DNA from: Microgenomates group bacterium
GTDB lineage: Bacteria > Patescibacteriota > Microgenomatia > UBA10105 > UBA927
Direction: 5' to 3'
Assembly (NCBI GenBank): GCA_049287205.1
Contig: JBAQFJ010000001.1
Span: forward strand, 191,041 to 255,040
DNA length: 64,000 nucleotides
Position 1 is the stretch's first letter. Every line of letters begins with the position of its first letter. A model generated the notes under the pieces. It was given only the letters and a program-made list of their open reading frames with translations. It made no database searches and was not told the origin of the DNA. Position numbers and translations under genes: made by a program. This document shows, piece after piece, positions 2,932-19,875 of the stretch.

Positions 2932-4335
2932 TTACCGGTATTTCCGGTTTGCGTATAGGTAGGGTATATAGGTGCGGAGTGATCTTTTTTCTGACAGGCC
3001 GTTTAGTACTGTATAGATCAAATAGAACCAGAGCCGAAATAGTATATTTGATTTCCACCCGACAAGTTTTTTAATTATTGGCATGAGTTTTGGAAACTTA
3101 ACAGCGGTTTGAAAAAAGAAAAGCATATTCTGTACATAATTGGCGTTGAGTTTTTTGAGTATTGTTCTATCAAGAATAGTTTCGGGTAAATTGGTGAAAT
3201 CATAGTCTGCGTCTAGATATCCGTGTTTTTTTGCGATATCCACTATCTTGGTTCCTGGGAATGGGGTAAAAATTGCAGCTCTTGGATAATCTGTTTTCAT
3301 GCGTATATTCATTTCAACTGTTTCCCACATTTCATTTTCGGTTTCTGTTGGAAGTCCAAGCATGTTGAATGTTTTAAATTTAATGTTGTGTGCATGAAGG
3401 GATTCTGCCATCGTTACGAGATAGTCGTTTGTATAGTTGCGCTCCACAACTTGTTTTCGCACACGGGGTGAACCTGATTCGACTCCAATGGAGACGCTGC
3501 AACAGTTATATTTCGCTAAAATAGCAATACAGGCGGGTGTTGTGAGTTCTGGACGAAGTAGCATGACAAAAGGCAATGTAGTGATTTTCGTATATTCGTT
3601 GAATACGTCATTCATCCATGGAAGATCGATCCCAAAGGAATCTGATGCAAAAATGATTGGATTGGGGGGAAAATATTGGAGTGCTGCCTGTATTTCTTGT
3701 ATTGAGCGTTTGACGCTGAAATGTCTAATGTATGGGCCTAATCCATGATACAGCTCGCGTGTTTGTTCATTAAAGCAGTAATTGCAAGAAAATGGACAAC
3801 CCCGGATCAGAAATACTGTTGGTGATCCATAGAGGACTGCCGTATTTTTGTAGCAGGACCAGTCAATAAGTGGAATGGTATCGAGCGGATAAACCAATGG
3901 ACGAAGTGGATTTTTAAACACTTTTTTCTTGCGTTTCACCCAAAGGTTTTTAATATGGGTAATTGGTTTTTTTTGATCGATTGCATTTAAAAGGTCTACG
4001 AGCGCAAATTCACCTTCGCCCCTGCAGATGTAATCAATTGGTTTTTCATGAATCACTTCTGGAAATAATGTGGGATGCGGACCGCCTAAAATAATTGGTG
4101 TTTTTGTTATTTTTTTTATGCTCCGGCAAATGTCGAGTGTGTCATTCATGAAGCTGCTAAGGCAGGAAAAACCGATCAGATCAGGTTTTTCATGAGAAAG
4201 TTTTTCTAGAATACGTTTTTTATCAGTGCTTACGATAAGCAAAAACTGGTGGCCAGCTGTTTTGGTGGCTGCGTGTAAATAGGCAGTACCGCAATACGGC
4301 GCTGTTTGAAGTTGAATCATGACTATTTTTGCCAT
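2932..4335 (-). CDS. B12-binding-domain radical SAM protein (class B rSAM, probable methyltransferase)
   Basis: An N-terminal B12-binding-like region is followed by a CxxxCxxC cluster RGCPFSCNYC. Length is 467 aa. Confidence 0.85.
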   Translation of the reverse strand: MAKIVMIQLQTAPYCGTAYLHAATKTAGHQFLLIVSTDKKRILEKLSHEKPDLIGFSCLSSFMNDTLDICRSIKKITKTPIILGGPHPTLFPEVIHEKPIDYICRGEGEFALVDLLNAIDQKKPITHIKNLWVKRKKKVFKNPLRPLVYPLDTIPLIDWSCYKNTAVLYGSPTVFLIRGCPFSCNYCFNEQTRELYHGLGPYIRHFSVKRSIQEIQAALQYFPPNPIIFASDSFGIDLPWMNDVFNEYTKITTLPFVMLLRPELTTPACIAILAKYNCCSVSIGVESGSPRVRKQVVERNYTNDYLVTMAESLHAHNIKFKTFNMLGLPTETENEMWETVEMNIRMKTDYPRAAIFTPFPGTKIVDIAKKHGYLDADYDFTNLPETILDRTILKKLNANYVQNMLFFFQTAVKFPKLMPIIKKLVGWKSNILFRLWFYLIYTVLNGLSEKRSLRTYIPYLYANRKYR

Positions 4336-4419
4336 TCCTATTACAATACACTAAGTACCAAATTATATGCAATTTTGCTCTATGCGTTGCGTTTACATAC
4401 ACTGGAAGTTTTTATTCGT

Positions 4420-5418
4420 ATGATTAGACCATTAGCACGCTTTAGAAAATCTATCTTTATCGTGTTCGTGTTACTAGAAGTAATGTGTATTTTTTTTCTC
4501 GTTCGTTATATTATCATCAAACAAAAGGGACTATTTCAAATTCATCCGTTGGCGAGCTTTGCACCTACGTCAAAGAGTAGTACACCGTTACAATATTATT
4601 ATGAGTTGACTCCCAACACCCAAGCATACGACCACGCTTCATGGCTTACTCAGGATGTTGTATATCACTATAACGCTGATGGTCTTCATGAGCGATTTGA
4701 TTATCCGGTGCAGAAAGACGCCCACGTGTATCGCATCATTACATTGGGAGATTCATTTACTTTTGGTATGTGGGTGAATACAGAAGCGAATTTTTCTGAG
4801 CTACTGGAAGATGCATTGAATACTACAGCTTCTTGTCCAGGGATTGATAGGTTTGAAGTGATTAATCTTGGCGTTCCCGGATATGATTTGCATTATGCGT
4901 TCCAACGGTTTGAGGATAAGGGGAGTAAATATGCGCCTGATGCCGTTATTTGGTTTTTACGAGGGGAGAATTTTATTCTTCATACGGAACTATACCGTGA
5001 TTTAGAAGAAACGTATAAAAAAACTCTAAAAGAAAAAACTGTAGAAACCTCTGATCAATCAGATATGTATGCTGCTTCCACATTGGCGTATCAAGCATAC
5101 ATGGATGCATATGCTACCTATTCTGCTGAAAAACAGGAGCAGATTAAGCAAGAAGAATTAAAGAACATCACAGCGTTATCTAAACGGTATAGTATTCCAA
5201 TAGTGCTTGTAACGCTTGAAGAAGAGTCGGAAGAAAATAAAAAAAGTATGCAGCAACTAGCATTACGCGGAAAAAATATTTGGTATGATGCAGTTGTTGG
5301 AGCTGATACATTTCATCCAAACGATTACCATTTAAACGCCCCAGGACACACACGTATCGCGCAAACCGTTTTTACGTTTTTACTATCTCATTTTCTGCAA
5401 TCATGTCGAATGCAATAA
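4420..5418 (+). CDS. Membrane-anchored SGNH/GDSL hydrolase, paralog 1
   Basis: N-terminal TM helix; GDS block ITLGDSFTFG; C-terminal DxxH (NDYHLNAPGH). The internal ATG at 4420 is chosen over the 4306 start. Confidence 0.75.
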   Translation: MIRPLARFRKSIFIVFVLLEVMCIFFLVRYIIIKQKGLFQIHPLASFAPTSKSSTPLQYYYELTPNTQAYDHASWLTQDVVYHYNADGLHERFDYPVQKDAHVYRIITLGDSFTFGMWVNTEANFSELLEDALNTTASCPGIDRFEVINLGVPGYDLHYAFQRFEDKGSKYAPDAVIWFLRGENFILHTELYRDLEETYKKTLKEKTVETSDQSDMYAASTLAYQAYMDAYATYSAEKQEQIKQEELKNITALSKRYSIPIVLVTLEEESEENKKSMQQLALRGKNIWYDAVVGADTFHPNDYHLNAPGHTRIAQTVFTFLLSHFLQSCRMQ

Positions 5419-6420
5419 ATGGCACATATGCAAAAAGCTCGAGGAAAAATATTTATCGTATGCATTTTTGCAGAATGCCTCAGTATCGCCATACTTTGTG
5501 TCTATATTATTGCCTTACATAAAACGCAGGCGATGCGAGCATTCCATGTCCTTCCTTTGTCTCAGAATACTGTCCAGTTTCCGATAGATACGGCGCTTCG
5601 CTATTACTATGAATTAGCACCAAATACTACGAAAATAGATGATTTTGCTTACATGCGGCTGACCGGCAAAGCGGTTCATACTATTAACGCGGATGGATTA
5701 AACGAAAGAATGATGTATGCGCTATCAAAACCTATTACCACATATAGAATTGTGACAGTTGGCGACTCTTTCACTGAAGGCGCGTTTGTTGATACAAAAA
5801 ATAATTATTCGGAAGTTTTGGAGGATATGCTCAATAGTAGCGTACAGTGCCCTTCTTATCAGCATTTTGAAGTTATTAACTTGGGTGTTGCCGGATATGA
5901 TATGCAATATAATCTTGAACGATTTAAGCAAAAAGGACTGAAGTATGATCCAAATCTTGTTATTCTTTGGACAGACGAAAATGATTATGTTGCCAATAAC
6001 GAAAAATATTACGCCTTGGTTGATACGTGGGATCCAGTGAAAGAATCGCCTGAAATTATTGCTTTATATCAATCTCAAGGTGACTTTGCGCCAGAGTCAA
6101 ATGCTGTCTGGTATAAATTTAATTCGTTATATACAAGGACAACACTTGTTGCGGAAGAACTGACGTATCTTCGTAATTTTATGCAGTTTGTTCAGAGTCC
6201 ATTGATCATTTTTTCATTGAGCCGGACGCCGAAAGACATTCGGCAATCAATCCAAACGATGGCGTATCAACAACAGGGAGCATTCTATTTTCCTGAGATA
6301 CCAGATGTGTATGATAAATTTCCTGATGACCACCCCTCTGTTGTAGGACATACGCAGTTTGCGGAATTTTTATATAGAAAGCTTCAGTCTTCTGTTCTTA
6401 CCGATTGTGTTTTTCGGTGA
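5419..6420 (+). CDS. Membrane-anchored SGNH/GDSL hydrolase, paralog 2 (tandem duplicate)
   Basis: IVTVGDSFTEG and DDHPSVVGH are present. It shares the YYYEL(A/T)PNT...NADGL(H/N)ER region with paralog 1. Confidence 0.75.
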   Translation: MAHMQKARGKIFIVCIFAECLSIAILCVYIIALHKTQAMRAFHVLPLSQNTVQFPIDTALRYYYELAPNTTKIDDFAYMRLTGKAVHTINADGLNERMMYALSKPITTYRIVTVGDSFTEGAFVDTKNNYSEVLEDMLNSSVQCPSYQHFEVINLGVAGYDMQYNLERFKQKGLKYDPNLVILWTDENDYVANNEKYYALVDTWDPVKESPEIIALYQSQGDFAPESNAVWYKFNSLYTRTTLVAEELTYLRNFMQFVQSPLIIFSLSRTPKDIRQSIQTMAYQQQGAFYFPEIPDVYDKFPDDHPSVVGHTQFAEFLYRKLQSSVLTDCVFR

Positions 6421-8092
6421 TTATTTTTCGTACTGTAAGAATTTCTAGACAGGTAAAAAGCAATAATAATGCGTACGCGCCAGATGTATAGGAATTGGCG
6501 TTTGTATTTGTCGGTGATTTGACTGTTCCAAAAAAAGCGACAATAAAATAAAAAAATAATGAACAAAGGAGGAGTGAAGCCTGAAACCAGTCGGTGATAT
6601 TTAGTTTTTGTTGTTTGAAGAGGCGAATGAGAAAATGCATATAGAAAAATATAAATAGCATCGGCATAATTTTTTGATACCAGATACATATACTTCTAAA
6701 CGTTATTGATGTGAGAGTTGAGCGTTGCTGCGTATCCGTTTTTTGTGTCAGAATAATTCCTCTTGTTATTTCTCGAAAAAGTGCAATTTGATCACTCGGT
6801 CCCTCACTGTATTTTGGAATCGTGGAGATGTCGAGTTTATTTGCAAGAACACCTGTTTGGATAGTGTTAACAAATTGTTCATAAAACTGTTGACGGTCTT
6901 CGGGACTGAAAAAAGTAAATCCGCTTATTGGAAAAAGTCCGCAGGTAATATATTTTGCGGTACACGCGGCATTGATTTCTTTGGTGAGCTGTTCAAAAAA
7001 AAGTTGTTCATCTTTTTGTGATGGTTTGGTGATTTTCCAAACAGCGTCTCGAAGTGCAAAATGAAAAGCGCCACCAGCAAGTTCATGTTCTTCCGGTGGT
7101 ATCCCTGTCCAGACAACGCTGTTTTGCGCCCAATCATATCCGCCTTGTCCTTCAAAAAATGGTTGGAGCTTTGCAAATGTGGGACTTACGGTATAGAGGA
7201 TGTGTCGGGTTTGTTTTGGAAGACTAATGAGTGGGTTGTGTACATCAGGCTGTATGCGCAATAACACAGAAAAGGCGCTTGCATAGCTTGGGTGAGAAAA
7301 TTCCCGCGTTGTATAGATGCCATACATATGTTTGTTTATGGCACTGAGCGCATGTGTTCCAAGAAGAAAGATGGCGAGTGGAAGCAGAAGAGGGATAATA
7401 TATTTTTTTGATATTTGTTTTTCTTTCCATGTTATCCAAGATGAATATCCATAACAGACAGCAAGAAGCGGCAGCAAAAAAAATCCTTCTTCACGGTAAT
7501 ACCAAAAGAGGAAAAAGAATATGCCAAGAGCGCTTGCGTAGAGAAGTCTTTGTCTATATACCTTGGAGATAATAAGACCGAAAGCACTGAGCGCGACAGC
7601 CAAACTTAGTGCTGGATAGAGCGCGGATCGGGTAATTTCAAAAAATGTTTCATGGTCAAACATAAACGGATTAAACAGAATGATCGTATAGAGAGGTATA
7701 AGAAGCCATTTGTTTCTAACAAACTGCAACACGCAGGCAAGAAACAACAGCGACGCCATACAATAGAGAAGTGTTTGTGCGATGGTAAGTGGAATATGAA
7801 GCATATACGCCCCAGTGATAAATAATGGAAAAACTGGTCCTCTGGTTATGATGCGTTCATTGTATGGTCCAAACCAGTTGCCAAGCGCAAGAGATTTTGC
7901 GTTTGTAATATACAGTTGCATGTCATGCGGTGATGGTGTGATGGCAACTATTTCTCTATCTTTAATTAACCAAATGCGAAACAGAGATATTGCCAGGATA
8001 ACCATATAGAAAATTATTGAAGAAATGGCAGAGTGGTTTTTTATGTGAACGTGCAGATTCTTTTTCATGTGTTTTGTTATACCAACAAGCAC
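6398..8092 (-). CDS. Polytopic membrane protein, GT-C-fold (ArnT/PMT-like) glycosyltransferase candidate
   Basis: The protein has more than 10 predicted TM segments and a large extracytoplasmic loop. An HDMQLY motif lies near the first loop. The start is uncertain (8092 or 8068). Confidence 0.6.
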   Translation of the reverse strand: MLVGITKHMKKNLHVHIKNHSAISSIIFYMVILAISLFRIWLIKDREIVAITPSPHDMQLYITNAKSLALGNWFGPYNERIITRGPVFPLFITGAYMLHIPLTIAQTLLYCMASLLFLACVLQFVRNKWLLIPLYTIILFNPFMFDHETFFEITRSALYPALSLAVALSAFGLIISKVYRQRLLYASALGIFFFLFWYYREEGFFLLPLLAVCYGYSSWITWKEKQISKKYIIPLLLPLAIFLLGTHALSAINKHMYGIYTTREFSHPSYASAFSVLLRIQPDVHNPLISLPKQTRHILYTVSPTFAKLQPFFEGQGGYDWAQNSVVWTGIPPEEHELAGGAFHFALRDAVWKITKPSQKDEQLFFEQLTKEINAACTAKYITCGLFPISGFTFFSPEDRQQFYEQFVNTIQTGVLANKLDISTIPKYSEGPSDQIALFREITRGIILTQKTDTQQRSTLTSITFRSICIWYQKIMPMLFIFFYMHFLIRLFKQQKLNITDWFQASLLLCSLFFYFIVAFFGTVKSPTNTNANSYTSGAYALLLLFTCLEILTVRKIITEKHNR

Positions 8093-8098
8093 AGATTA

Positions 8099-9274
8099 TT
8101 ATCTGTTTTGTAATAATTCAAATATTTTTGGATAGAGTATTTCGGCAGCCGATTGATTTCCTAAGGTATTGAGATGCGTATCTTGAGGTTGATAGTATTG
8201 TGTTGCTAATTCGTCTTTTTTCCAAATTTCAAGTAAATTAATATATTGAATATTTTTTTGATGAAAATAATCCATTAATAATCGTTGTGGTAAATCTACT
8301 TCAAATGAATCTACAGATCTATGTAATCGTGAGGCAACTTTCGTAAGTAACTCACTATTTACTTGCATTTCCTCTGGAATGATTAAAACTAAAAATTGTG
8401 CATTTGCCTGTTCAGTCAATTCTTTCATATGAGTAATATATTGTTGAACACGTGGTAATGAGAGGTATATTGAGCTATTTGGTAGAAAAATTGATGCTTT
8501 GTGAGTTTCAATCTCCAAAAAATTTTCCAATGAAAATGTTGGCTCATTGGGATTATAAGATGAATAACTATCAATCCCCAACGATCCATACGAAGAGGAT
8601 GAACTGGTTTGATTTGCCATCATAGAGGTTCTACCAAAACGTATGGTGTAATATAAATTTCGTGTTAACGATACAATTTTTGATTGATAGAACATGAAAG
8701 GAAGAAGGTGGGGTTGTTTATTTTTTTCATCTGCATAGCGTTCTATATTTGTATGTGTGTCTAAAAAATCATTTCCGACATAAAACGCAAGAAGAACAAT
8801 GTCTGGTTGATAACGTATTCCTTCTAAAGAAAGAATAATCGTTTCAGTCGGCGGCCCAATGCAAGGCAACGCAAGATTAATGGCTTGAAATTTATTTGAA
8901 TAATTTGATTGAACATTTTTTTCTAAAAGGTTGATAAATAATTGATTATATGGAATGGGTCCAACTGATTGAGAGTCTCCAAGTAATACTAAGCGTTTGG
9001 TATCTAATGGTTTAGCGTATGGGGTTTCAGGTGTTCTGAATCCCTTAGAATTAAGAACAAATCCATATAATTCATATCCTGGCGGAGTAGGGCAATCAGA
9101 CAAAGTCCATAATCCTTGCCAATCAATGTTGGTTACGTACCGATTTTGCTGATACGGATTGGTGGTAAAAAATAATAATTTAGGTGATATTTTTTCAGCT
9201 TCACGAAGAAAAAGTTCCGATAGAACAAAAACAAAAAAAATTCCGATTATGCTATATAACAATTGTTTTACCAT
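8099..9274 (-). CDS. Membrane-anchored SGNH/GDSL hydrolase, paralog 3
   Basis: VLLGDSQSVG and DTHLNTLGN (DxxH) are present. There is an N-terminal TM helix. Confidence 0.75.
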   Translation of the reverse strand: MVKQLLYSIIGIFFVFVLSELFLREAEKISPKLLFFTTNPYQQNRYVTNIDWQGLWTLSDCPTPPGYELYGFVLNSKGFRTPETPYAKPLDTKRLVLLGDSQSVGPIPYNQLFINLLEKNVQSNYSNKFQAINLALPCIGPPTETIILSLEGIRYQPDIVLLAFYVGNDFLDTHTNIERYADEKNKQPHLLPFMFYQSKIVSLTRNLYYTIRFGRTSMMANQTSSSSSYGSLGIDSYSSYNPNEPTFSLENFLEIETHKASIFLPNSSIYLSLPRVQQYITHMKELTEQANAQFLVLIIPEEMQVNSELLTKVASRLHRSVDSFEVDLPQRLLMDYFHQKNIQYINLLEIWKKDELATQYYQPQDTHLNTLGNQSAAEILYPKIFELLQNR

Positions 9275-9280
9275 TGGTGG

Positions 9281-10975
9281 TTATTTTGTAATAAGATAGT
9301 TATTTATGATGAGACAGTGCATTGGAGTTTTTAAGAAATCTTCAATTGCTTGACGCGGTGTTTCGACAATCGGTTCTCCCTGAAGATTAAAACTGGTGTT
9401 CATAATGCAATCAATATGCGTTTTTTTTGCATACGTTTTTAACAGGTGATAATATCTTCCATTCTCTGGGGAAACAGTTTGTATGCGGCAGGATTCATCC
9501 TGATGCACAATCGCTGCAAGCGCGTCCTGTTTTTGTTTTTTTACCTGAAAACAGAAATTCATAAATGGACTGCCATGTTTTTTCTGTGGCACGTCAAAAT
9601 AGTCATGAATAGTTTCTTGCAGTGCAGATCCCGCAAAAGGCCTAAATTGTTCTCGATGTTTGATAATATTCATTTTTGTTTTCATTGATCTCGGATTGGT
9701 TGCGGAAAGAATTGATCTATTGCCAAGCGCACGTGGTCCAAATTCCATAGCTCCCTGAAACCATCCGATTATTTTTTTGCTTGCAAGCAAGTTCACTGCT
9801 TTTTTTAGCAAAATTTTTTCATCGGTTATTTTTTGATAGGAAAGGCCAGGGAATTGAGAAAGTATACGTTCAATATCTTCATCACTCGGACTCGTGCCGA
9901 GTGCAAGGGTTGGAAGCGGCAGGTGATGGATTGTCGTTGACCCAAAAAAATTGTAATACACATAGAGTGCGGCGCCAATAGCTGTTCCGCTGTCACTGGA
10001 ACTTCCCAATATATGAATTTTTTTGAATGGTGTACGCGCATAGAGTTTTCCGTTTGCAAGTGCATTTAAGGCAACGCCGCCGCTCATACAAAGATTTTTT
10101 TCTTTGGTTAGCGTTGAAAGATGGTTCAGCATGGAAATTAAGAGTTCTTCCGTCACTTTTTGTACGCTCGCTGCGATATCTTTGTGTCGTTTTTCAACAA
10201 CGTCGTGTGGTTTTCTTGGGGTTCCCAACAATTTTTCAAATTTTTTATTCCACATGCAAAAGGACGTTTGAAAACCAAAATAGCGCATATCCAATTTGAA
10301 GCTTCCGTCAGGTTTCACATCAATCAATGTTCGTATTTGTTCTTCATATACAGGTTTGCCATACGCAGCAAGCCCCATGACCTTATATTCATCTTCATTT
10401 ATTTTGAATCCTAAGAAGGCAGTAACCGTGGAATACAAAAGACCTACGGAATTGGGAAAATCAATGGATGCAAGATGCGTTATGGTATTGTTTTTCCCTG
10501 ACCATAATCCCGTGGTTTCGTATTCTCCTACGCCGTCAATAGTAAGAATTGCAGCGTGAGCAAACGGAGAAGTAAAAAACGAAGATGCTGCATGGGAAAG
10601 GTGATGGGGAACGTACATGATTTGTTTTGTAAAATGCAGGTCTTTCCGTATGACGTGTTCGACATTGATCTTTGTACTTAACCAATCGGGTATTGCTTGA
10701 AGAAATGGACGGAGTGCATAGGGATAGGTGGTTACAAACGTTTCTAGCAGCCGTTCAAATTTTAGCAGTGGTTTTTCGTAGTATGCAATGACATTGATAT
10801 CGTCAATCGTGTAGTTTGCAAGCTGCAACAACCGTGTTATAGCTTGACGAGGAAATTGATTATCGTGTTTGATTCTGGTGAATCGTTCTTCTTCCAGTGC
10901 GGCGATGACCTTGCCATCAACAATCAGTGCTGCTGCGCTGTCATGATAAAACGCTGATATGCCAAGAATGATCAT
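9281..10975 (-). CDS. NodU/CmcH-family carbamoyltransferase
   Basis: The N-terminus IILGISAFYHDSAAALIVDGKVIAALEEERFTRIKHD is the hallmark of the NodU/CmcH/TobZ carbamoyltransferase family. Length is 564 aa. Confidence 0.9.
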   Translation of the reverse strand: MIILGISAFYHDSAAALIVDGKVIAALEEERFTRIKHDNQFPRQAITRLLQLANYTIDDINVIAYYEKPLLKFERLLETFVTTYPYALRPFLQAIPDWLSTKINVEHVIRKDLHFTKQIMYVPHHLSHAASSFFTSPFAHAAILTIDGVGEYETTGLWSGKNNTITHLASIDFPNSVGLLYSTVTAFLGFKINEDEYKVMGLAAYGKPVYEEQIRTLIDVKPDGSFKLDMRYFGFQTSFCMWNKKFEKLLGTPRKPHDVVEKRHKDIAASVQKVTEELLISMLNHLSTLTKEKNLCMSGGVALNALANGKLYARTPFKKIHILGSSSDSGTAIGAALYVYYNFFGSTTIHHLPLPTLALGTSPSDEDIERILSQFPGLSYQKITDEKILLKKAVNLLASKKIIGWFQGAMEFGPRALGNRSILSATNPRSMKTKMNIIKHREQFRPFAGSALQETIHDYFDVPQKKHGSPFMNFCFQVKKQKQDALAAIVHQDESCRIQTVSPENGRYYHLLKTYAKKTHIDCIMNTSFNLQGEPIVETPRQAIEDFLKTPMHCLIINNYLITK

Positions 10976-10978
10976 AAA

Positions 10979-11167
10979 TCAATACGGCGATGAAAAATAC
11001 TGTTTCGGTAGTTTTTTTAGATCCGGTATACGCCAGTAACTGTTGACGGTTACTCGTGGGTGTTTGGTTGTTTTATGAATAATCCATGCCAGAGGGATTA
11101 TGAAGATGTAGAACATGCCGACAATGAGTGAAATAAACACTGCATTTATTTTTTTTACCAGTTTCAT
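10979..11167 (-). CDS. Small membrane protein downstream of the carbamoyltransferase
   Basis: MKLVKKINAVFISLIVGMFYIFIIPLAWIIHK... has one TM segment. The stop is 3 nt from the carbamoyltransferase start. Confidence 0.45.
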   Translation of the reverse strand: MKLVKKINAVFISLIVGMFYIFIIPLAWIIHKTTKHPRVTVNSYWRIPDLKKLPKQYFSSPY

Positions 11168-11369
11168 AAAATTGGATAGAGGAAGACAGGCAGCGGGCTT
11201 ATTTGTGCGCTGATAACAAGAAGCGCGATGATAATAAGAAAAAGGACAACTGGGATAATCCAAATTTTTTTGGAGTGTGTCGCTAAGATAAAGAGCTGCT
11301 TAATTGTTTGAAACATATAGCTCGATTCTATCTGAATTATGTATACTTGTAAATTGCATTGTTCTAGTA

Positions 11370-13337: not shown

Positions 13338-13377
13338 ATCTTTATTTATATCATAGAAATCTTGGAGACATTGGGGA

Positions 13378-13406
13378 TTGACGTGGGTCACGGCTTTCCG
13401 TATAAT
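13378..13406 (+). promoter_or_regulatory. Sigma70-type promoter, candidate rrn P1
   Basis: TTGACG, a 17-nt spacer, then TATAAT. Seen directly. Confidence 0.6.
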
Positions 13407-13458
13407 TGACTTTTGCAATGAGAAAGTAAGCCAATTCGCTTCGTGTATCTGGGTTCGA

Positions 13459-13483
13459 CCCCGCACAAGGCGGGGCTTTTTTT
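13459..13483 (+). promoter_or_regulatory. GC hairpin plus U7 in the rRNA leader. It is either a boxB-like element, a leader terminator/attenuator, or the terminator of a short sRNA.
   Basis: Stem ccccgc, loop acaag, stem gcgggg, then c and ttttttt. Seen directly. Confidence 0.5.
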
Positions 13484-13493
13484 CTCTCTTTTT

Positions 13494-13505: not shown

Positions 13506-13566
13506 TATTTGCAAGCAGTATAGTCAGTACAGTAAATATCTTGGTGAATTAAACGGTGATAGGAAA

Positions 13567-15056
<1,490 letters not shown>

Positions 15057-15248
15057 AATTTAAAATCGAAGATGCGAAGCATACACGAATGAGTAATCAT
15101 TCCACTATATGATGAGCATCGATAGATTTTTACACGCATCTCTTTGAGAGAGTGCGTATATATAAACTATTCTCGAGCAGAATAGTTCTCTCAAAATACC
15201 CATGTTCCTGTCACCGTTTAGTACATCAAGTATTTACTGTTTTTCGTT

Positions 15249-15275
15249 ATCCCGCTTTGCACGCGGGATTTTTTG
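15249..15275 (+). terminator. Intrinsic terminator after the 16S trailer
   Basis: Stem atcccgc, loop tttgcac, stem gcgggat, then tttttt. Confidence 0.7.
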
Positions 15276-15300
15276 TAGACACTTTGTCTATAATAGGAAT

Positions 15301-16338
15301 ATGTTTCGTAAAACAAATTTTTTATCCTGTTTTATTATCATAGGGATTTTGATTTTCTTTATTGTCGTATCTGAATGCATCGTCCGTTTTTTATCTGACA
15401 GACATATAGTGTCGTATTACAAGCCTATTGAACTGGTTAAGCAGCATGAAACAGCGGAGGAATTGCGGTTGAGTAATGTATTTTCAAATGGTGAATCTGA
15501 ATTTGAATATGATCCTTTGTTTTTTTGGCGTCCCAAAAAAAATGTAGGTGTGTTTAATACTTTAGGGATACGAGCTGATTCATCTGGTCTGCAAGAGTCA
15601 GTTAACACATCATGTACGGTCGTCATGTACGGCGATTCAAATACTGTGGGTGCGTTTCAGGGTGGGTACTATGATTCTCCTTGGCCTGAAGAATTGGGGA
15701 AATTACTTCAGAAACACATTCCTGATGTCAGAATATTTAATATGGGGGTCTCAGGTTATTCTTCCTATCAGGGATTGGAAAAATTTCGTCAGGATATTCC
15801 TTTCTTTCATCCGTCACTTGTTTTTGTTGCATTTGGTTGGAATGATGCCGCTCCTAATATGGGAATTTCAGATAAAGAGTTTCATACCATGCTTTCTTCC
15901 TTAGTATCACCGTTAAATAATTTTCGATTGTTTCAAGTAATTAAATACTATTCTGATGCCTTGCTTCAACGATATATCCAGAAAACTGTATCAGACGGAC
16001 CAAGAGTTTCATCTGAAGATTTTAAAAATAATTTAGTTGCGTTTATTCAACTTGCACAACAAAATAATAGTACGATTGTCTTCATAACTCGACCCCACAC
16101 AGATTTTTCAGATTCAGAATATTCCAATTGGCGAGTACGCGTTGTGGAAAATAACGCCATTATTCGTTCTGTTGCCTATGAATACGGCGTCCCGATTATT
16201 GACATGGAAGAAATGTTTCTCAACCAATACAAAAATGAGTTAATCGATGATTGCCATTTTACCCAAAGAGGTCATACGATTGCAGCTCATGAAATATATA
16301 CATTGCTTCAACGTGAACAGTTATCGTGTGGATACTAG
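15301..16338 (+). CDS. Membrane-anchored SGNH/GDSL hydrolase, paralog 4
   Basis: MYGDSNTVG, GWNDA and DDCHFTQRGH (DxxH) are present. There is an N-terminal TM helix. The start is at the internal ATG 15301. Confidence 0.75.
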   Translation: MFRKTNFLSCFIIIGILIFFIVVSECIVRFLSDRHIVSYYKPIELVKQHETAEELRLSNVFSNGESEFEYDPLFFWRPKKNVGVFNTLGIRADSSGLQESVNTSCTVVMYGDSNTVGAFQGGYYDSPWPEELGKLLQKHIPDVRIFNMGVSGYSSYQGLEKFRQDIPFFHPSLVFVAFGWNDAAPNMGISDKEFHTMLSSLVSPLNNFRLFQVIKYYSDALLQRYIQKTVSDGPRVSSEDFKNNLVAFIQLAQQNNSTIVFITRPHTDFSDSEYSNWRVRVVENNAIIRSVAYEYGVPIIDMEEMFLNQYKNELIDDCHFTQRGHTIAAHEIYTLLQREQLSCGY

Positions 16339-16343
16339 TGTTC

Positions 16344-17408
16344 TTACTTGCTGAGCATTGATTTCCATAGGATCGGTTGACCTAAGTTTCCTAAAATGCT
16401 CTGATATGCTTCGCATGGTGTCCAACAATTAGCGCAGCGTTTCATCTGGATTATGTGCAACGCATTGAGCATTTTTTTATCGTTCCACATAGTCATAAGG
16501 TTTCCTTTATTTTTTTTGATGTTTCCTAATGGTTGATTCCACATAGAGCAGGGGAAGATGTTCCCGTATGGGTCAATGAATATTGAACTTGAGAGAGACC
16601 TGCATGAGATTGGGGTTTTTTTGGTTGTAATATATTTTTGAATAAGGCGTTGATAGATTCGTTCAATCCATGCGATTTTTGTCCACGCAAACGGTTTTTT
16701 TTGGTTAAATTCACTGATACTCTTTATCATGGCGGAGCTGAGTGTCAAATGTTTCTCTTCATTTCCATAGTAATGTGATGATTGGTGAGCAATATTAAAA
16801 TGAATATCAGATCGTTTCAACGATGGAATCTCATTTTTTAACTCACGATACGTTTGTTCTATAGTCATAAAATTATAGTTTGAAATAGTCATCCCGAAAT
16901 AACAGTCAAATCGTGATGATCGCAATGCTTTTAGTTGTGTATATGTCGTTATCGCATGTTTCCAATTACCCTTGATACCACGAAGCTGATCATGTAGGCT
17001 TTCGGGACCGTCAAGAGATACAGAAACAAGAAAATGTGGAGGTTTCAGTTCTAGAATTTCTTTCACTTGATTTACTATTCTCTCTGTCAATAAGCCGTTA
17101 GTGGGAAAGTTAAGAAATAGCAGATGTTTTTGTGTCGTTAGAATTGTTTTACAAATAGAAACAAGATCGTTTCGAAGTATCAGTTCTCCTCCTGTCAGAT
17201 TTACCCAAGTAAAGAAGGTATTTTTTTTGAAAAAATCATGTATTTCAGATAATGTAAGTTCCTTCTTATATGGTTTTTTCCAAATGTTGCATATCGTGCA
17301 GCGGGAATTGCATCGATAGGTGATAGCGAAGGTAAGTTTATACGGAGAAGGTAACCGTATGAGGTTAGATTTGAGAATGGTGAAGATGCTATACAATGTA
17401 TTATTCAT
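16344..17408 (-). CDS. Radical SAM protein with a C-terminal SPASM-type Cys-rich domain
   Basis: CNSRCTIC (CxxxCxxC) is near the N-terminus. C-terminal cysteines CRSL...CSMW...CANCWTPCEAY follow. It overlaps the GT-C gene start by 8 nt. Confidence 0.85.
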   Translation of the reverse strand: MNNTLYSIFTILKSNLIRLPSPYKLTFAITYRCNSRCTICNIWKKPYKKELTLSEIHDFFKKNTFFTWVNLTGGELILRNDLVSICKTILTTQKHLLFLNFPTNGLLTERIVNQVKEILELKPPHFLVSVSLDGPESLHDQLRGIKGNWKHAITTYTQLKALRSSRFDCYFGMTISNYNFMTIEQTYRELKNEIPSLKRSDIHFNIAHQSSHYYGNEEKHLTLSSAMIKSISEFNQKKPFAWTKIAWIERIYQRLIQKYITTKKTPISCRSLSSSIFIDPYGNIFPCSMWNQPLGNIKKNKGNLMTMWNDKKMLNALHIIQMKRCANCWTPCEAYQSILGNLGQPILWKSMLSK

Positions 17409-18879
17409 TTGAGCTAATACTATCTTTAGTTATTCGATATAACGTGTGGTAATTATAACGATTTATCATACTATCATACAGAATGATGATTTTTTCTTTA
17501 TGAAGATCCAAAATAGGCGGGTCGTTTGGCTCATCGATATAGGAAGGATCAATAAAAATGATTGGTGATAAATTTTGTTTATTTGCATAATAAAAAACAT
17601 TTCCAAGTTCGATGGTTCCTTCATTGTTGATATTCCAAAAATGCATATTTTCTTTATATAGAGGATTGGAATATTTAAATGATGGTGTGTCCCATTGATA
17701 AAGCCAAGGGAGTGTGACGATTAAAGCGTTGGGATAGTTTGTATGAATATACTCTATCGATTTTGTATATAAGGTTGTTACATGAAATAGATTCAAATCT
17801 GTTTCACCCCAATAATCCATTGGTAGATAATAATAATGCGCTATATGAATGCATATAAATATAGTGCCTATGCATATACTTAGAATAAGTGCTTTTATTT
17901 TCGAGAAAAAAAACATCATCGTTGCACCTGAGACAATAAATAAATATGGATATAGCGGGAGCAAATATCTTGGAACGAACGCGCTAAAAAAATACAAGAG
18001 AACATAGAAGAAAAAAAGAAATAGAAAAAAGAGCAGTGGCATATATCGCTTTTTTTGAAATGGTATTTTTTTAGCTAAAAAAATAACAACATATGTAATA
18101 ATAGTTGGCCATATGAGCCAAATGCCATTAAAAAGAAAAATAAACTGTAGTATGTTTTGTATTGTTATTACAAAGTTTCTGTTAAAACTAAGTAGTCCAA
18201 AGTTGGCAGGATCTAAGTAAAAACTAAAAATCATTTTGTTTAATCCCATCCATATGAGAATTGCGATAAGAGGGAGGCAATACGGAATTGCTTGCCTGAT
18301 TGATTTTGATAGAGAGAAATGGAGTAAAAGCTTTAAGCGATATGCTTCATATAGACAGATAAAAAATGGAATAAATAGAAACGGTTCTTTTGTAAGCACG
18401 AGAAGGGTGGCTGAAATGTAGTACCAAAGTTTATTGTGTGTGAAATATGCATACATGGTCATAAGCAGCAAAAAAGTAAGAATTGAGACGTCGTTAAAAA
18501 AAAAGCTTTGTGACATGAAAAGAGGAAAAATACACAGAAGCACGGTTGCATACAAACCTGTTTTTTTATCAAAAAGCTGTTTCCCTAATAAATACGTGAA
18601 TAGTAGGGATAATGAGGAAAACGTATAAATAATAAGACTTCCGACTGTTAATGACGGACCGAAAAATTTGAATAATAATGCAGATAAAAAAATGAACACG
18701 GGAGGTCTATAGGAGATATACAATGTAAAAGGATTCAAATTATTATTTAACATTTTTAGAGTTGCATCGTAATAAACTGCTTGGTCGTTATATGGAAGTG
18801 TATGCATAAACGGAATACGAAGGAAGAAATTTAATATACAAAGAGCAATAACGAACAGAAGCCATTTATCAATCCTCAT
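17401..18879 (-). CDS. GT-C-fold glycosyltransferase (ArnT/PMT, GT39/83-like)
   Basis: About 12 TM helices. The first loop contains PYNDQAVYYDATLKM. The C-terminal soluble domain is about 130 aa. Confidence 0.75.
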   Translation of the reverse strand: MRIDKWLLFVIALCILNFFLRIPFMHTLPYNDQAVYYDATLKMLNNNLNPFTLYISYRPPVFIFLSALLFKFFGPSLTVGSLIIYTFSSLSLLFTYLLGKQLFDKKTGLYATVLLCIFPLFMSQSFFFNDVSILTFLLLMTMYAYFTHNKLWYYISATLLVLTKEPFLFIPFFICLYEAYRLKLLLHFSLSKSIRQAIPYCLPLIAILIWMGLNKMIFSFYLDPANFGLLSFNRNFVITIQNILQFIFLFNGIWLIWPTIITYVVIFLAKKIPFQKKRYMPLLFFLFLFFFYVLLYFFSAFVPRYLLPLYPYLFIVSGATMMFFFSKIKALILSICIGTIFICIHIAHYYYLPMDYWGETDLNLFHVTTLYTKSIEYIHTNYPNALIVTLPWLYQWDTPSFKYSNPLYKENMHFWNINNEGTIELGNVFYYANKQNLSPIIFIDPSYIDEPNDPPILDLHKEKIIILYDSMINRYNYHTLYRITKDSISSNE

Positions 18880-19011
18880 ATATTCGATGATACCTTTTTA
18901 CAGGTTATATTGATATTGTAGTAATACGTACGTTTATTATGGTTTAAACATATGAAAAAAACAATTCGATTATTACATTATCTTTTTAATAAAGAGGTTG
19001 ATATTTTATAT

Positions 19012-19686
19012 CTAAAAAGTAAGACAATTTTGTAATAAATTCCAAACAAATCGGCTCCACATATTTTTTAAAATAATTTTTGACTTTCCATATTTCCTTT
19101 TTAATTCATGGCTCGCTATTTCATTTACACAAAAGTGCTTATGCAGTGATTTCATAAGCATATCTTGTTCAATAGTGAAAGAATTTTCTTTACAAGAAAT
19201 ATTTTTTGCTACAGAGCAACGAATTGCACGGAATCCATTTTGGGAATCAGTTATTTGTGATTTGTATCTCCAATTGATAATTTGAGTTATTATAGCGCTT
19301 CCAATCATTCTGATAGTTTTTTCAAAATCACCATGTAGTTCATCACTTCCGCCTTTTCCTCGCGATGCTATAACGAGGTCAGCTTGCCCTTGAATAATGG
19401 GTGTAATTAATTTTGGGATGTCTGAGGCTTTGTGTGAACCGTCTGCATCCATCAAAACAATAATATCTCCAGTTGCTTTTTTTATTCCTAGTTGAACTCC
19501 TGCGCCTTTTCCTTTGCCGTTATCCAAAAATACTTGTACTCCATTGGATTTTGCAATAGCGCGTGAATCATCTTTCGAATGTCCATCGATAACCAGAATT
19601 TCGTTAACGTAGGGTTTTGCTTTTGTGATAACTGACGCAAGAGTAGAAGATTCATTTTTACAACAGATGACCAATGTTGTTTTCAT
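19012..19686 (-). CDS. GT2-family polyprenyl-phosphate glycosyltransferase (Dpm1/ArnC-like)
   Basis: VICCKNESSTL, IDGHSKDDS and LMDADGSH (DxD) motifs are present. Confidence 0.85.
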   Translation of the reverse strand: MKTTLVICCKNESSTLASVITKAKPYVNEILVIDGHSKDDSRAIAKSNGVQVFLDNGKGKGAGVQLGIKKATGDIIVLMDADGSHKASDIPKLITPIIQGQADLVIASRGKGGSDELHGDFEKTIRMIGSAIITQIINWRYKSQITDSQNGFRAIRCSVAKNISCKENSFTIEQDMLMKSLHKHFCVNEIASHELKRKYGKSKIILKNMWSRFVWNLLQNCLTF

Positions 19687-19871: not shown

Positions 19872-19875
19872 CAAA

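Follow-up and report, generated by a model that had tools for sequence, protein, structure and literature searches.

The locus examined here raises the question of whether SGNH-type serine hydrolases, polytopic membrane glycosyltransferases and several cytoplasmic enzymes, encoded close to one another in a Microgenomates (CPR) bacterium, act together on the cell envelope. The window, that is, the whole stretch of 64 kb that was analysed, belongs to an uncultured bacterium, to which a Candidatus Gottesmanbacteria MAG is the closest species in GTDB. An earlier note had described an envelope-glycan locus built from repeated pairs of SGNH and GT-C genes, and all the ORFs that it named were recovered in place. 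Enzyme classes, topology signals, operon structure and synteny can be read directly from the locus, whose components are individually of familiar types, although their combination is uncommon.

Component enzymes

The five SGNH proteins form one family. They comprise SGNH-a (4420..5418, plus strand; Lipase_GDSL, 4.7e-5), a predicted membrane-anchored, outward-facing SGNH-type serine hydrolase/transferase; SGNH-b (5419..6420, plus strand; Lipase_GDSL, 5.8e-8); SGNH-c (8099..9274, minus strand), for which the only Pfam match is ALGX at 6.1e-4; SGNH-d (15301..16338, plus strand; Lipase_GDSL_2, 7.9e-21), which matches solved GDSL esterases and is the member nearest to canonical SGNH proteins; and SGNH-e (60472..61593, plus strand; Lipase_GDSL_2, 1.4e-7), which opens an isolated module of two genes. 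Invariant GDS, G and N motifs and a C-terminal D-x-H, an unusual final motif, are common to all five, and each has a single N-terminal hydrophobic helix preceded by K/R. The anchors are predicted from these signals to lie N-in, with the catalytic domains outward-facing. Profiles built from the other four members recognise each protein at 30-126 bits (121 bits for SGNH-a; 36 bits, 2.7e-12, for SGNH-c), which corroborates the earlier description of five TM-anchored paralogs. The profile of all five matches solved GDSL/SGNH esterases, the closest solved relatives being GDSL lipases, lysophospholipase L1-like esterases and TesA.

The four polytopic proteins had been described as ArnT/PMT-like GT-C enzymes. 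Three of them are GT-C glycosyltransferases, but the fourth only inclines to this class. The PMT_2-type (ArnT/PMT-like) protein 17401 (17401..18879, minus strand; 3.9e-8, 34.1 bits against a 26.1-bit cut-off) gives the only direct Pfam match among the four, and also matches the NCBIfam 'cell surface glycopolymer formation protein' (1.8e-7); for the other three (6398, 11370 and 61603), neither Pfam nor NCBIfam gives a match even at E<=10. Outside Pfam coverage, 6398 (6398..8092, minus strand) has about seven TM helices, a helical outer domain of ~200 aa and three further TM helices. Its AF2 model (pLDDT 85.7, pTM 0.85) retrieves GT-C enzymes as all of its top 14 Foldseek PDB matches, including ArnT (8e-4, probability 1.00), Emb, PglB, AftA, ALG and Pmt, at E-values near 1e-3 and low TM-scores of ~0.3 to solved GT-Cs; locally it superposes best on Pmt2 (rmsd 5.8 over 274 columns). 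This confident model supports 6398 as a GT-C by fold. Asp57, after TM1, is nearly invariant in its family, of which a Skermanella member is named 'RgtA/B/C/D-like' in UniRef. The divergent 11370 (11370..13337, minus strand) combines ~12 TM helices with an alpha/beta domain at its C terminus. A profile search from it yielded 1047 relatives, of which 60 were scanned: 19 match PMT_2 (best 2.3e-16), and others match DUF2142, PMT, TMEM260-like, GT87 and carbohydrate-binding modules. Transitive profile homology links it to the PMT_2, DUF2142 and GT87 clan. Asp131 is nearly invariant, within a motif of consensus DExxY among the scanned relatives, and Arg356 is invariant; the AF2 model is poor (pLDDT 51.6) and has AftB as its top structural match. 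As for 61603 (61603..63069, plus strand), Pfam recognises none of 11 members of its family, and the protein is unclassified. An hhalign comparison with the 11370 family (57% probability, E 1e-4, 123 columns) and an 'ADE..Y' motif after TM1 in all full-length family members make it lean towards GT-C.

Just past a TM helix, all four proteins have an acidic motif with an aromatic residue after it. The possibility that they are MBOAT or acyltransferase-3 proteins, which the earlier note had set against its own assignment, found no support: none of the four matches MBOAT or Acyl_transf_3 at E<=10, and no invariant His occurs in the 6398, 11370 and 61603 families. The four proteins show no mutual similarity in all-against-all BLASTP (E>0.6), and they are therefore not repeated modules by origin. 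On the SGNH side, SGNH-a and SGNH-b are the only clear tandem duplicate (34% identity, 1e-53 by BLASTP).

The cytoplasmic enzymes largely bear out the earlier assignments. The short soluble GT2 (19012..19686, minus strand; Glycos_transf_2, 3.5e-24), of the polyprenyl-phosphate sugar synthase type, shows a DAD motif and resembles AglJ (1.7e-35), PpgS (3.9e-20), dolichyl-phosphate hexose transferase (1.3e-14) and ArnC (1.3e-10), all under the NCBIfam equivalog cut-offs, in support of a role in donor supply. The O-carbamoyltransferase of the NodU/CmcH/TobZ family (9281..10975, minus strand; Carbam_trans_N 2.9e-83, Carbam_trans_C 4.6e-62) matches NovN (2.9e-90), GdmN and TobZ at full length; NovN and TobZ carbamoylate sugar hydroxyls. 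Upstream of it lie a 62-aa single-pass membrane protein (10979..11167, minus strand), an ORF with no Pfam or NCBIfam match that is conserved in relatives, and a 50-aa DUF5989 membrane protein (11164..11316, minus strand; 31.4 bits against a 27-bit cut-off), a common companion of carbamoyltransferases. These two small genes had not been listed before. Both domains were matched in each of the two radical SAM enzymes. The first, of class B (2932..4335, minus strand; B12-binding 2.1e-17, Radical_SAM 7.5e-20), carries a CPFSCNYC motif; its nearest solved relatives are an unnamed radical SAM enzyme, the dehydratase AprD4, OxsB and the methylase CysS, so the suggested methyltransferase activity is not established. 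The second, with a SPASM domain (16344..17408, minus strand; Radical_SAM 3.9e-10, SPASM 8.5e-8), carries CNSRCTIC and has the PTO1314 family as its best NCBIfam match, far under the cut-off.

Operons, synteny and the embedded 16S rRNA gene

The region is not one unit: a complete 16S rRNA gene (13568..15054, plus strand; Rfam SSU_rRNA_bacteria, 1344 bits) splits it into at least four transcription units of opposing orientations. This gene, absent from the earlier note although it lies mid-interval, is unlinked from 23S/5S and occupies the same position in three related loci (L004, L005, L006). The best promoter-like site near it spans 13378-13406, and a T-run hairpin follows at 15249-15269. It is embedded in the locus and is no functional component of the glycan system. 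Intergenic gaps of 6 bp and gene overlaps of 8 and 23 bp occur in the locus: SGNH-c shares an operon with the carbamoyltransferase and GT-C 6398, between which it lies with a 6-bp gap on either side, the rSAM-SPASM gene overlaps the PMT_2 gene by 8 bp, and SGNH-b converges on 6398, their 3' ends overlapping by 23 bp. The proposal that each SGNH gene lies beside a GT-C gene holds in part: SGNH-b and SGNH-c flank 6398 and SGNH-e precedes 61603, but SGNH-a adjoins only SGNH-b, the rSAM-SPASM gene, on which SGNH-d converges, intervenes before 17401, and 11370 has no SGNH neighbour.

The pairs are also conserved only in part. SGNH/GT-C adjacency is retained only in close relatives (57-71% identity); homologs at 24-34% identity lack it and instead have GT2 polyprenyl-phosphate sugar synthase genes as recurrent neighbours, no SGNH neighbour having been found among distant homologs for any of the three GT-C families examined. 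Gene content varies among relatives, but a carbamoyltransferase gene, a GT-C gene and two convergent SGNH genes are kept as a core; this arrangement recurs in at least five related metagenomic or MAG loci and is therefore more than chance. SGNH-b has orthologs in equivalent position in L004, L006, L030 and L031, whereas SGNH-c is found in L004/L007 and missing from L006, L030 and L031. The DUF5989 gene is also upstream of the carbamoyltransferase in L005 and L031, and homologs of 60 aa (32-34% identity) take the place of the 62-aa protein, between DUF5989 and carbamoyltransferase, in L030 and L031. L004/L007 further contain orthologs of the B12-rSAM enzyme (84% identity) and, past the 16S gene, of SGNH-d (49%). 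Beyond the 16S gene, L004 encodes a second 6398 paralog together with a polytopic protein of 442 aa and a further B12-rSAM enzyme; L006 carries there PMT_2, a B12-rSAM enzyme and, adjoining PMT_2, the rSAM-SPASM ortholog (62% identity). The co-oriented 60472/61603 pair, 9 bp apart, also occurs in L017, surrounded by unrelated housekeeping genes, with the SGNH-e ortholog (78% identity) upstream of its partner. One conserved flank is a PAP2 phosphatase, undecaprenyl-diphosphatase-like (1689..2300, plus strand; Pfam PAP2 3.3e-24, NCBIfam SepP 2.3e-16, under the family cut-off), syntenic in five loci (L004, L005, L006, L030, L031).

In more distant genomes, GT2 genes recurrently adjoin genes of the 6398 and 61603 families (L009, L010, L016, L018, L023, L026, L032), those of the 6398 family in L016 and L032. 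The neighbours of 61603 relatives are GT2, carbamoyltransferase, PMT_2 or a gene resembling, by eye, a DegT-type sugar aminotransferase, and in L018 polytopic proteins again come after a carbamoyltransferase. The 6398-family gene of L032 lies within a classical polysaccharide locus (Bac_transf, Wzy_C, GT4, UDP-Glc dehydrogenase, MBOAT+AlgX, GT2, LPG_synthase_TM), and this distant relative carries a canonical MBOAT+AlgX pair.

Taken together, we consider it somewhat probable that several separate operons on either side of the 16S rRNA gene make up a variable envelope-glycosylation island, specific to this Microgenomates lineage close to Candidatus Gottesmanbacteria. The separate operons may serve different products, which counts against a single system. 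It can accordingly be asked whether a recombination-prone spot beside the 16S gene has accumulated independent envelope-modifying cassettes with different targets (the carbamoyltransferase/GT-C operon, the GT2/PMT_2/rSAM operon and stand-alone SGNH genes), the SGNH/GT-C adjacency being functionally meaningless. This explanation, to which we would give about one chance in four, fits the division by the 16S gene into opposed units, the differing content past it in L004 and L006, the confinement of SGNH-c to one sublineage, the distant GT-C homologs free of SGNH neighbours and the low GC of the island (0.34-0.38 vs 0.42 in the housekeeping part). However, the core is kept at 57-71% identity, SGNH-c is placed inside an operon with 6-bp gaps, the isolated 60472/61603 pair persists among housekeeping genes, and all components would be expected at the same membrane face or in the same type of pathway.

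Role of the SGNH proteins

The O-acyl decoration suggested earlier is the weakest of the proposals. No MBOAT, AT3 or other acyl translocase was found across the 64 kb, so that glycan O-acylation would be without an obvious donor route, and any role given to the SGNH proteins is therefore tentative. CPR bacteria are generally dependent on external lipids. The SGNH proteins could be outward-facing lipases or phospholipases that provide a cell unable to make its own fatty acids or lipids with those of a host or of its surroundings, lying beside glycosylation genes by coincidence. Their solved relatives, their anchored and outward-facing topology and the lack of a translocase partner agree with such a role, which we nevertheless regard as improbable: SGNH-c is tightly operonic between carbamoyltransferase and GT-C, pairing is conserved in close relatives, five divergent paralogs suggest several distinct substrates, as is typical of glycan tailoring, and the 6398-family GT-C of L032 lies beside a genuine glycan O-acetylation pair.

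The locus also resembles two-component O-acetylation systems (PatA/PatB, AlgI/AlgJ/AlgX, OatA, WssH/WssI) in having outward-facing, membrane-anchored SGNH-type domains beside polytopic proteins. The C-terminal D-x-H resembles that of AlgJ/AlgX, SGNH-c has its weak ALGX match, and the five-member profile matches AlgJ weakly (E 0.44); unlike in the AlgX of L032, where the motif order is permuted, the order here is canonical, with GDS first and D-x-H last. Such systems pair SGNH domains with MBOAT/AT3 proteins, whereas the partners here, so far as they can be classified, are of the GT-C kind. That the pairs, notably 60472/61603, are O-acyltransferases of the PatA/PatB, AlgI/AlgJ or OatA type, in which the polytopic partner ferries acyl groups instead of sugars, is very improbable, since this textbook layout, the missing Pfam assignment of 61603 with its GT-C link of just 57% probability, and the tight pairing kept in L017 are opposed by the lack of MBOAT or Acyl_transf_3 matches and of an invariant His, by the 'ADE..Y' motif shared with the 11370/PMT_2-like family, by distant 61603 relatives paired with GT2, PMT_2 and carbamoyltransferase instead of SGNH, and by the GT-C assignment of 6398 and 11370 by fold or profile.

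Relation to known systems and proposed mechanism

The reading as an extracytoplasmic glycosylation locus finds its closest parallel in the three-component systems GtrA/GtrB/GtrC, CsbB/GtcA/YfhO, ArnC/ArnEF/ArnT and polyprenyl-phosphoribose synthase/MATE/GT136 (PMC11127046). As in these, GT2 19012 and GT-C 17401 share an operon, distant 6398-family members adjoin a GtrB-like GT2 (in L032 also an LPG_synthase_TM gene, for which a flippase role is a guess), and some 11370-family members carry carbohydrate-binding modules, like some GT136 enzymes. The locus departs from them in having one GT2 for three or four unrelated GT-Cs, and also in its carbamoyltransferase, its two radical SAM enzymes and its five SGNH proteins. 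No flippase (GtrA, Wzx, MATE or SMR type), initiating phosphoglycosyltransferase or polymerase was found in the window, so the pathway of the acceptor glycan is not visible there.

The GT-C arrays of mycobacterial and corynebacterial cell walls (Emb, Aft, Mpt, PimE; PpgS with Rv3779) likewise combine multiple GT-Cs and polyprenyl-phosphate sugars at the outer face, as predicted here; GT2 19012 is similar to PpgS both in length and in sequence, and structural matches include Emb and AftA for the 6398 model and, as the top one for the poor 11370 model, AftB. In those walls, serine-hydrolase-type transferases carry out acylation on the outside of the membrane. Outward serine hydrolases beside GT-Cs recall, by analogy only, mycoloyl transfer onto arabinan. 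The differences are that no orthology to any named mycobacterial enzyme was found, that the hydrolases have the SGNH instead of the alpha/beta-hydrolase fold, and that the host is a tiny CPR genome without a mycolic acid pathway. Similarities to protein O-mannosylation (Ppm1 with Pmt in Actinobacteria; PMT and TMEM260 in eukaryotes) lie in the PMT_2 match of 17401, the PMT and TMEM260-like relatives of 11370 and the large outer domain of 6398, inserted between TM blocks like the MIR domain of PMTs; no MIR domain is present here, and a protein target is a possibility only.

With respect to carbamoylation, both Pfam domains are full-length and homology to NovN, GdmN and TobZ is strong, as expected of the NodU/CmcH/NovN/TobZ/SxtI group, but 9281 falls far under the NodU equivalog cut-off (149 vs 1000 bits). 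The adjoining DUF5989 protein, which may be equivalent to SxtK, is near the 54 aa of the latter in size, whereas the 62-aa partner has no SxtJ match. It has been proposed that SxtI works together with SxtJ and SxtK (PMC2679770). The setting differs from these precedents in being an envelope locus and not a secondary-metabolite or Nod-factor cluster.

We infer the following steps, together with their sugars and acceptor. At the inner membrane face, the short GT2 would load a sugar on polyprenyl phosphate, in the manner of AglJ, PpgS and ArnC. In the cytoplasm, the donor sugar or a precursor would be tailored by the two radical SAM enzymes and by the O-carbamoyltransferase, for which DUF5989 and the 62-aa protein may act as membrane tethers. 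Lipid-linked sugars would then be flipped by some putative flippase, and on the outer side each of three or possibly four unrelated GT-Cs would pass a sugar to an acceptor at the surface, which could be a wall glycopolymer or a secreted protein. In the same compartment, the five anchored SGNH enzymes could edit ester substituents of the glycosylated product, as esterases or as transacylases with a lipid-borne acyl donor. The PAP2 phosphatase, if it takes part in the glycan system as we infer, might recycle the lipid carrier. The general idea of the earlier note, an envelope-glycan locus driven by GT-C enzymes with lipid-linked donors supplied by the GT2, is thereby supported. It can be surmised, with slightly more belief than doubt, that this CPR lineage encodes extracytoplasmic glycosylation systems of the three-component type combined with cytoplasmic carbamoyl and radical-SAM tailoring, which is the best reading of the locus.

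Organisation of the locus and its embedded 16S gene

ORF calling and profile searches in window coordinates confirmed the gene positions reported in the earlier note and completed its inventory, in which the 16S rRNA gene, a DUF5989 gene and a 62-aa gene had been overlooked. Read from the left, the map starts with genes recognised by profile search as a PAP2 phosphatase (1689-2300, plus strand), a SpoU methylase (2301-2870, plus) and a B12-binding radical SAM (rSAM) enzyme (2932-4335, minus). SGNH-a (4420-5418, plus) and SGNH-b (5419-6420, plus) converge on a minus-strand operon, the 3' end of which they overlap by 23 bp. This operon comprises, in order, the genes for DUF5989 (50 aa; 11164-11316; 31.4 bits against a 27-bit cut-off), a conserved single-pass membrane protein of 62 aa (10979-11167), an O-carbamoyltransferase (9281-10975), SGNH-c (8099-9274) and the polytopic protein 6398 (6398-8092), the successive genes being separated by -4 (an overlap), 3, 6 and 6 bp. 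Upstream on the same strand, after a gap of 53 bp filled by a promoter-like site, comes the gene of polytopic protein 11370 (11370-13337). A second minus-strand operon, with an 8-bp overlap, consists of the genes for a GT2 (19012-19686), the PMT_2 polytopic protein 17401 (17401-18879) and an rSAM-SPASM enzyme (16344-17408). SGNH-d (15301-16338, plus) converges on this operon, and genes for tRNA-Cys (19800-19872, plus) and an MFS transporter (19913-21091, plus) lie beyond it. SGNH-e (60472-61593, plus) and its polytopic partner 61603 (61603-63069, plus) form a separate pair amid housekeeping genes. Proteins of the window are listed by NCBI under 'Microgenomates group bacterium' with the locus tags WAV51_00805, WAV51_00830 and WAV51_01135, on a contig of 1,020,031 bp; in GTDB, the closest species is represented by a MAG of Candidatus Gottesmanbacteria.

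The complete 16S rRNA gene (13568-15054, plus; Rfam, 1344 bits) is located between the two gene groups, a placement found also in the relatives L004, L005 and L006. The region's best promoter-like site precedes this gene by about 160 nt, and a T-run hairpin lies downstream of it; the promoter and terminator scans were overall not above shuffled expectation, and only these 16S-flanking sites were singled out. Neither a 23S nor a 5S gene is present anywhere in the 64 kb, so that the rRNA genes are unlinked. A tRNA-Ile(GAT) gene normally follows 16S; here it is found at 21859-21931, 6.8 kb downstream, with a low-GC cassette (15301-19686) in between. The housekeeping part (22600-58000) has a GC content of 0.42, which falls to 0.38 at 2932-13466 and to 0.34 in this cassette, with a minimum of 0.31 in the PMT_2 gene. 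Such low values are compatible with a cassette that is exchanged horizontally or evolves fast.

Several features of the surroundings may be recorded in their own right. On the left flank, where the relatives have topA, the window encodes (344-1357, plus) an odd domain combination of a PIN_12 domain, collagen-like G-x-x repeats (GPTGPTGIAG...) and a C-terminal zinc-ribbon-like CxxC...CxxC. In the 767 bp between the MFS and tRNA-Ile genes (21092-21858), there is neither a credible ORF nor a match to Rfam (E ≤ 0.1). Further on, a glmS ribozyme/riboswitch (24381-24566, minus; 55.2 bits against a 37-bit cut-off) lies upstream of an ORF (22565-24418, minus) which, judged from its sequence, is glmS-like (glutamine-fructose-6-phosphate aminotransferase).

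Fold assignment of the polytopic proteins

The earlier note had read the locus as repeated modules in which an SGNH protein is paired with a GT-C glycosyltransferase. The polytopic proteins are not copies of one module, since no similarity is detectable between any of the four by BLASTP (E > 0.6); hhalign comparisons among the 6398, 11370 and 61603 families gave probabilities of 1-15%, except for 53-57% between 61603 and 11370. Protein 17401 exceeds the Pfam PMT_2 threshold (34.1 bits against a cut-off of 26.1 bits, E 3.9e-8). For 6398, 11370 and 61603, Pfam and NCBIfam scans returned no match at E ≤ 10, and searching the PDB with profiles of these families yielded nothing meaningful. Ten distant members of the 6398 family also lacked any Pfam or NCBIfam match, as did all 11 scanned members of the 61603 family for Pfam.

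The assignment of 6398 is carried by its AlphaFold2 model, computed from a 20-sequence alignment (pLDDT 85.7, pTM 0.85). The first 14 PDB matches of this model in Foldseek are all GT-C enzymes with probabilities of 0.60-1.00 (ArnT, EmbA/B/C, PglB, AftA, STT3, AglB and ALG9), the best being ArnT (E 8e-4, probability 1.00), and ALG3 and Pmt1/2 were also matched; no MBOAT or acyltransferase-3 (AT3) structure appeared among its PDB matches. The TM-scores of only about 0.3 and identities of about 11% to solved GT-C enzymes make the kinship distant. The predicted architecture of seven or eight helices, a helical outer domain of about 200 residues and three more helices is PMT-like. By this model, 6398 has a GT-C fold, distant from the solved ones. 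The UniRef label of its Skermanella homologue reads 'Glycosyltransferase RgtA/B/C/D-like domain-containing'.

For 11370, the evidence comes from its family. Word-indexed search had found only 7 relatives, against 1047 when 1.84 billion representatives were searched exhaustively by HMM, which shows that its orphan appearance was an artefact of sensitivity; rarity is for this reason not claimed for the 6398 and 61603 families, for which the same word-indexed search gave 20 and 6 relatives. When 60 of the 1047 relatives were scanned, 19 matched PMT_2 (best 2.3e-16), two DUF2142, two PMT, one a TMEM260-like family and one GT87, all of which we take to be GT-C families; two of the 60 also carry carbohydrate-binding modules. 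By this transitive evidence, rather than by a direct match, 11370 is homologous to recognised GT-C families. The AlphaFold2 model of 11370, computed from 7 sequences, was of low quality (pLDDT 51.6); Foldseek ranked AftB first at only E 0.29, with unrelated folds behind it, and these matches were set aside as uninformative. The 61603 family aligns with the 11370 family over 123 columns (hhalign, 57% probability, E 1e-4).

In all four proteins, the first loop outside the membrane, following TM1, contains conserved acidic residues with a putative catalytic role. These are the nearly invariant Asp57 of 6398 ('DD' in the Skermanella and Xenophilus homologues), the nearly invariant Asp131 of 11370 (consensus DExxY in the 60-member family alignment; Arg356 is invariant in the family), the 'ADE..Y' motif in all five full-length 61603 members and, read from a single sequence only, 'YNDQ' in 17401. 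The alternative that these are acyltransferases of the MBOAT or AT3 type found no profile match at E ≤ 10 in any of the four, and the family alignments of 6398, 11370 and 61603 contain no invariant or nearly invariant His. The GT-C class claimed previously thus holds for 6398, 11370 and 17401; 61603 is a candidate GT-C, for which the MBOAT/AT3 alternative is unlikely.

SGNH proteins and tailoring enzymes

The SGNH part of the claim is borne out by motifs, anchors and mutual profile recognition common to all five proteins. The block I GDS nucleophile and the oxyanion-hole Gly and Asn are present throughout, with the GDS, the Gly four residues on and the Asn of an 'INLG'-like block invariant in 5/5 (G110, D111, S112, G116, N149). 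Four of the five match Pfam Lipase_GDSL or Lipase_GDSL_2, and SGNH-c joins them through a leave-one-out profile (2.7e-12). Profiles built from any four score the fifth at 30-126 bits and other proteins of the locus at no more than 2.5 bits, and the profile of all five matches solved GDSL/SGNH esterases and TesA. The only close paralogues are SGNH-a and SGNH-b (34% identity, 1e-53), other pairs reaching 1e-4 to 1e-6 or worse. Each protein has one N-terminal hydrophobic helix preceded by Lys or Arg, so that the predicted topology is an N-in anchor with an external catalytic domain. In canonical SGNH/GDSL enzymes, block V is DxxH, with the catalytic Asp and His three residues apart. None of the five has this motif; all have instead a C-terminal D-x-H with a spacing of two residues (DYH, DDH, DTH, DCH and DNH), followed by a conserved Gly. 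D-x-H retains the catalytic pair and so represents a variant of block V, not its loss. No SGNH domain fused to a GT-C was found among 187 fetched proteins.

The GT2 encoded at 19012 is a short protein with a DAD motif and no TM helices. It matches AglJ (1.7e-35) and PpgS (3.9e-20), and also dolichyl-phosphate hexose transferase and ArnC, all below the equivalog cut-offs. These enzymes load sugars onto polyprenyl phosphates. The donor of the GT-C proteins would be a polyprenyl-phosphate-linked sugar, a putative assignment supported by the context of this GT2 in the operon and by GT2 neighbours in relatives.

The carbamoyltransferase matches both domains of its family over the full length (Carbam_trans_N 280.6 bits, Carbam_trans_C 209 bits) and is homologous to NovN, GdmN and TobZ (2.9e-90 to 1e-65). 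NovN and TobZ carbamoylate sugar hydroxyls. Its assignment as the NodU equivalog was rejected (149 against 1000 bits). Directly upstream lie the 62-aa gene and that of DUF5989, which may correspond to SxtK, and the trio is found also in L005, L030 and L031. A carbamoyltransferase with two small membrane partners recalls SxtI, SxtJ and SxtK of saxitoxin clusters, where SxtI is proposed to act with the other two and sxtK is a 165-bp gene of unknown function (PMC2679770). An SxtJ-like identity of the 62-aa ORF received no support in Pfam and NCBIfam scans, and a literature search on DUF5989 returned only unrelated ornithine carbamoyltransferase papers.

The B12-rSAM enzyme matches the B12-binding and Radical_SAM domains of Pfam and carries a CxxxCxxC core (CPFSCNYC). 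Its membership in class B rSAM stands, and the methyltransferase function once considered probable becomes one option among others, as its solved relatives include the AprD4 dehydratase and OxsB beside the methylase CysS. Its NCBIfam matches are all far below cut-offs. The rSAM-SPASM enzyme (Radical_SAM 3.9e-10, SPASM 8.5e-8; motif CNSRCTIC) received no specific or equivalog assignment in NCBIfam.

Conservation of the locus and its proposed role

In close relatives, with a 6398 orthologue of 57-71% identity (L004, L005 and L007 of Gottesmanbacteria, and L006, L030 and L031), the order is TopA, a small ORF, PAP2, (B12-rSAM), SpoU and two SGNH genes converging on 6398, followed by carbamoyltransferase, a 60-aa gene, DUF5989, (11370 family) and 16S. 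The contents vary around this order: SGNH-c occurs only in the window and L004/L007, and L004 lacks an 11370 orthologue. Past 16S, L004 has a second 6398 paralogue, another polytopic protein, an SGNH-d orthologue and a second B12-rSAM, and L006 has PMT_2, rSAM-SPASM and B12-rSAM. L017 retains the 60472/61603 pair (78% and 62% identity), flanked by the same housekeeping genes as in the window. Extra polytopic proteins (L004 3046-4743, minus; L006 14254-15405, minus; L018 4403-6004; L004 1721-3049) occupy positions held by other GT-C genes in the window; two are 6398-family paralogues (25-30% identity) and two, of 442 and 533 aa, are unclassified. A 4.7-kb contig labelled 'uncultured Gammaproteobacteria bacterium' (L008, CAYRFA010000053.1) carries homologues of 11370 (44%), the carbamoyltransferase (74%) and 6398 (57%) in the CPR order, and is probably a mis-binned Microgenomates contig.

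The SGNH pairing is conserved in these close relatives and in L017, but not at distant homologues. SGNH neighbours are lost at 6398 homologues of 24-32% identity (Moraniibacteriota, Skermanella, Nitrospirales, Xenophilus, Arenicellales and a Coxiella MAG), at 61603 homologues of 29-34% identity and at 11370 relatives; no SGNH gene was found near the distant GT-C homologues, except for a weak match 4.5 kb away in L013. Adjacent SGNH and GT-C genes are a feature of one lineage only. What recurs at distance is a GT2, located immediately downstream in L016 and L026 and in the vicinity in L009, L010, L018, L023 and L032, together with a carbamoyltransferase in L018 and PMT_2 in L019 and L029; a neighbour in L021 resembles, by eye, a DegT-type sugar aminotransferase. 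The most informative example is L032, in which a polysaccharide locus has, in order, GT2, GT4, epimerase, MBOAT, AlgX and the 6398-family gene, followed by a GT2 30% identical to 19012, a methyltransferase, LPG_synthase_TM, UDP-glucose dehydrogenase, GT2, Bac_transf and Wzy_C. Its MBOAT (474 aa) and AlgX-type protein (521 aa) form a canonical O-acetylation pair (4481-7484) directly upstream of the 6398-family gene, and the AlgX has a permuted motif order (DCTHW before IGDSY), unlike the SGNH proteins of the window. This placement in a classical (Wzy-type) polysaccharide locus suggests that the 6398 family behaves as the GT-C part of a side-chain glycosylation system. Its distant members (L011 6308-8131, L014 9923-11935, and those of L012, L013, L015 and L016) are "hypothetical" in RefSeq and without Pfam match, and the family extends to Nitrospirales and others and to the cultured Proteobacteria Skermanella aerolata (WP_044429824) and Xenophilus arseniciresistens (WP_271428584). 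It is a widespread, unannotated family, probably of the GT-C class.

Three-component systems rely on a GT2 to synthesise a polyprenyl-phosphate sugar, on a flippase to bring it to the other side of the membrane and on a GT-C to attach it to an acceptor at the surface (PMC11127046). As in these systems, a synthase-type GT2 and a GT-C share one operon here, and the evidence agrees with a set of such systems for extracytoplasmic glycosylation. We propose that this glycosylation would be elaborated by cytoplasmic carbamoylation, radical-SAM chemistry and outward-facing SGNH enzymes, and the separate operons may serve different products. Window ORFs with at least three TM helices are the four candidates, the MFS transporter, RseP and a DUF2178 protein. 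Neither these nor the small ORFs include a GtrA-, SMR-, MATE- or Wzx-like flippase or an MBOAT/AT3 acyl translocase; the only other transporters in the window are the MFS protein and RseP, and it contains no initiating transferase or polymerase. With no acyl translocase in the window, the SGNH enzymes may be esterases, users of lipid-borne donors or unrelated lipases. It could also be hypothesised that D-x-H SGNH and GT-C proteins act directly together in an undescribed extracellular (de)acylation of a surface glycan without MBOAT/AT3, acyl groups coming from membrane lipids or being pre-attached to the polyprenyl-linked sugar, and that carbamoyl and radical-SAM tailoring would then give a lipoglycan-like or glycoprotein coat unique to Microgenomates; we consider this improbable.

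Literature searches brought up no account of paired SGNH and GT-C proteins, nor of GT-C systems in CPR bacteria. The view put forward in the earlier note is retained in part: its coordinates and SGNH proteins stand and its repeated modules do not, and its interpretation gains from the lack of MBOAT/AT3 signal and is narrowed by an adjacency confined to one lineage. Every component is of a known kind. At the annotation level, the novelty comprises two or three GT-C families that escape both Pfam and NCBIfam, an SGNH family with the variant D-x-H motif that is paired with them in the Gottesmanbacteria-like clade, and a 16S gene whose embedding in a variable island is conserved. With known components and a pairing of one lineage, the locus is of value for annotation and for generating hypotheses, not as a new principle. 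The 6398 family is experimentally accessible through its presence in cultured Proteobacteria and classical polysaccharide loci, and D-x-H SGNH proteins beside GT-C proteins, without an acyl translocase, pose a testable question on ester handling outside the membrane. CPR bacteria are uncultured, tiny and thought to be host-attached, so that surface chemistry is central to their lifestyle; to our knowledge, this chemistry is almost unknown. As the locus indicates, several outward-acting GT-C enzymes, two of them from families missed by Pfam and NCBIfam, are maintained in a Gottesmanbacteria-like lineage together with carbamoyl and radical-SAM tailoring.
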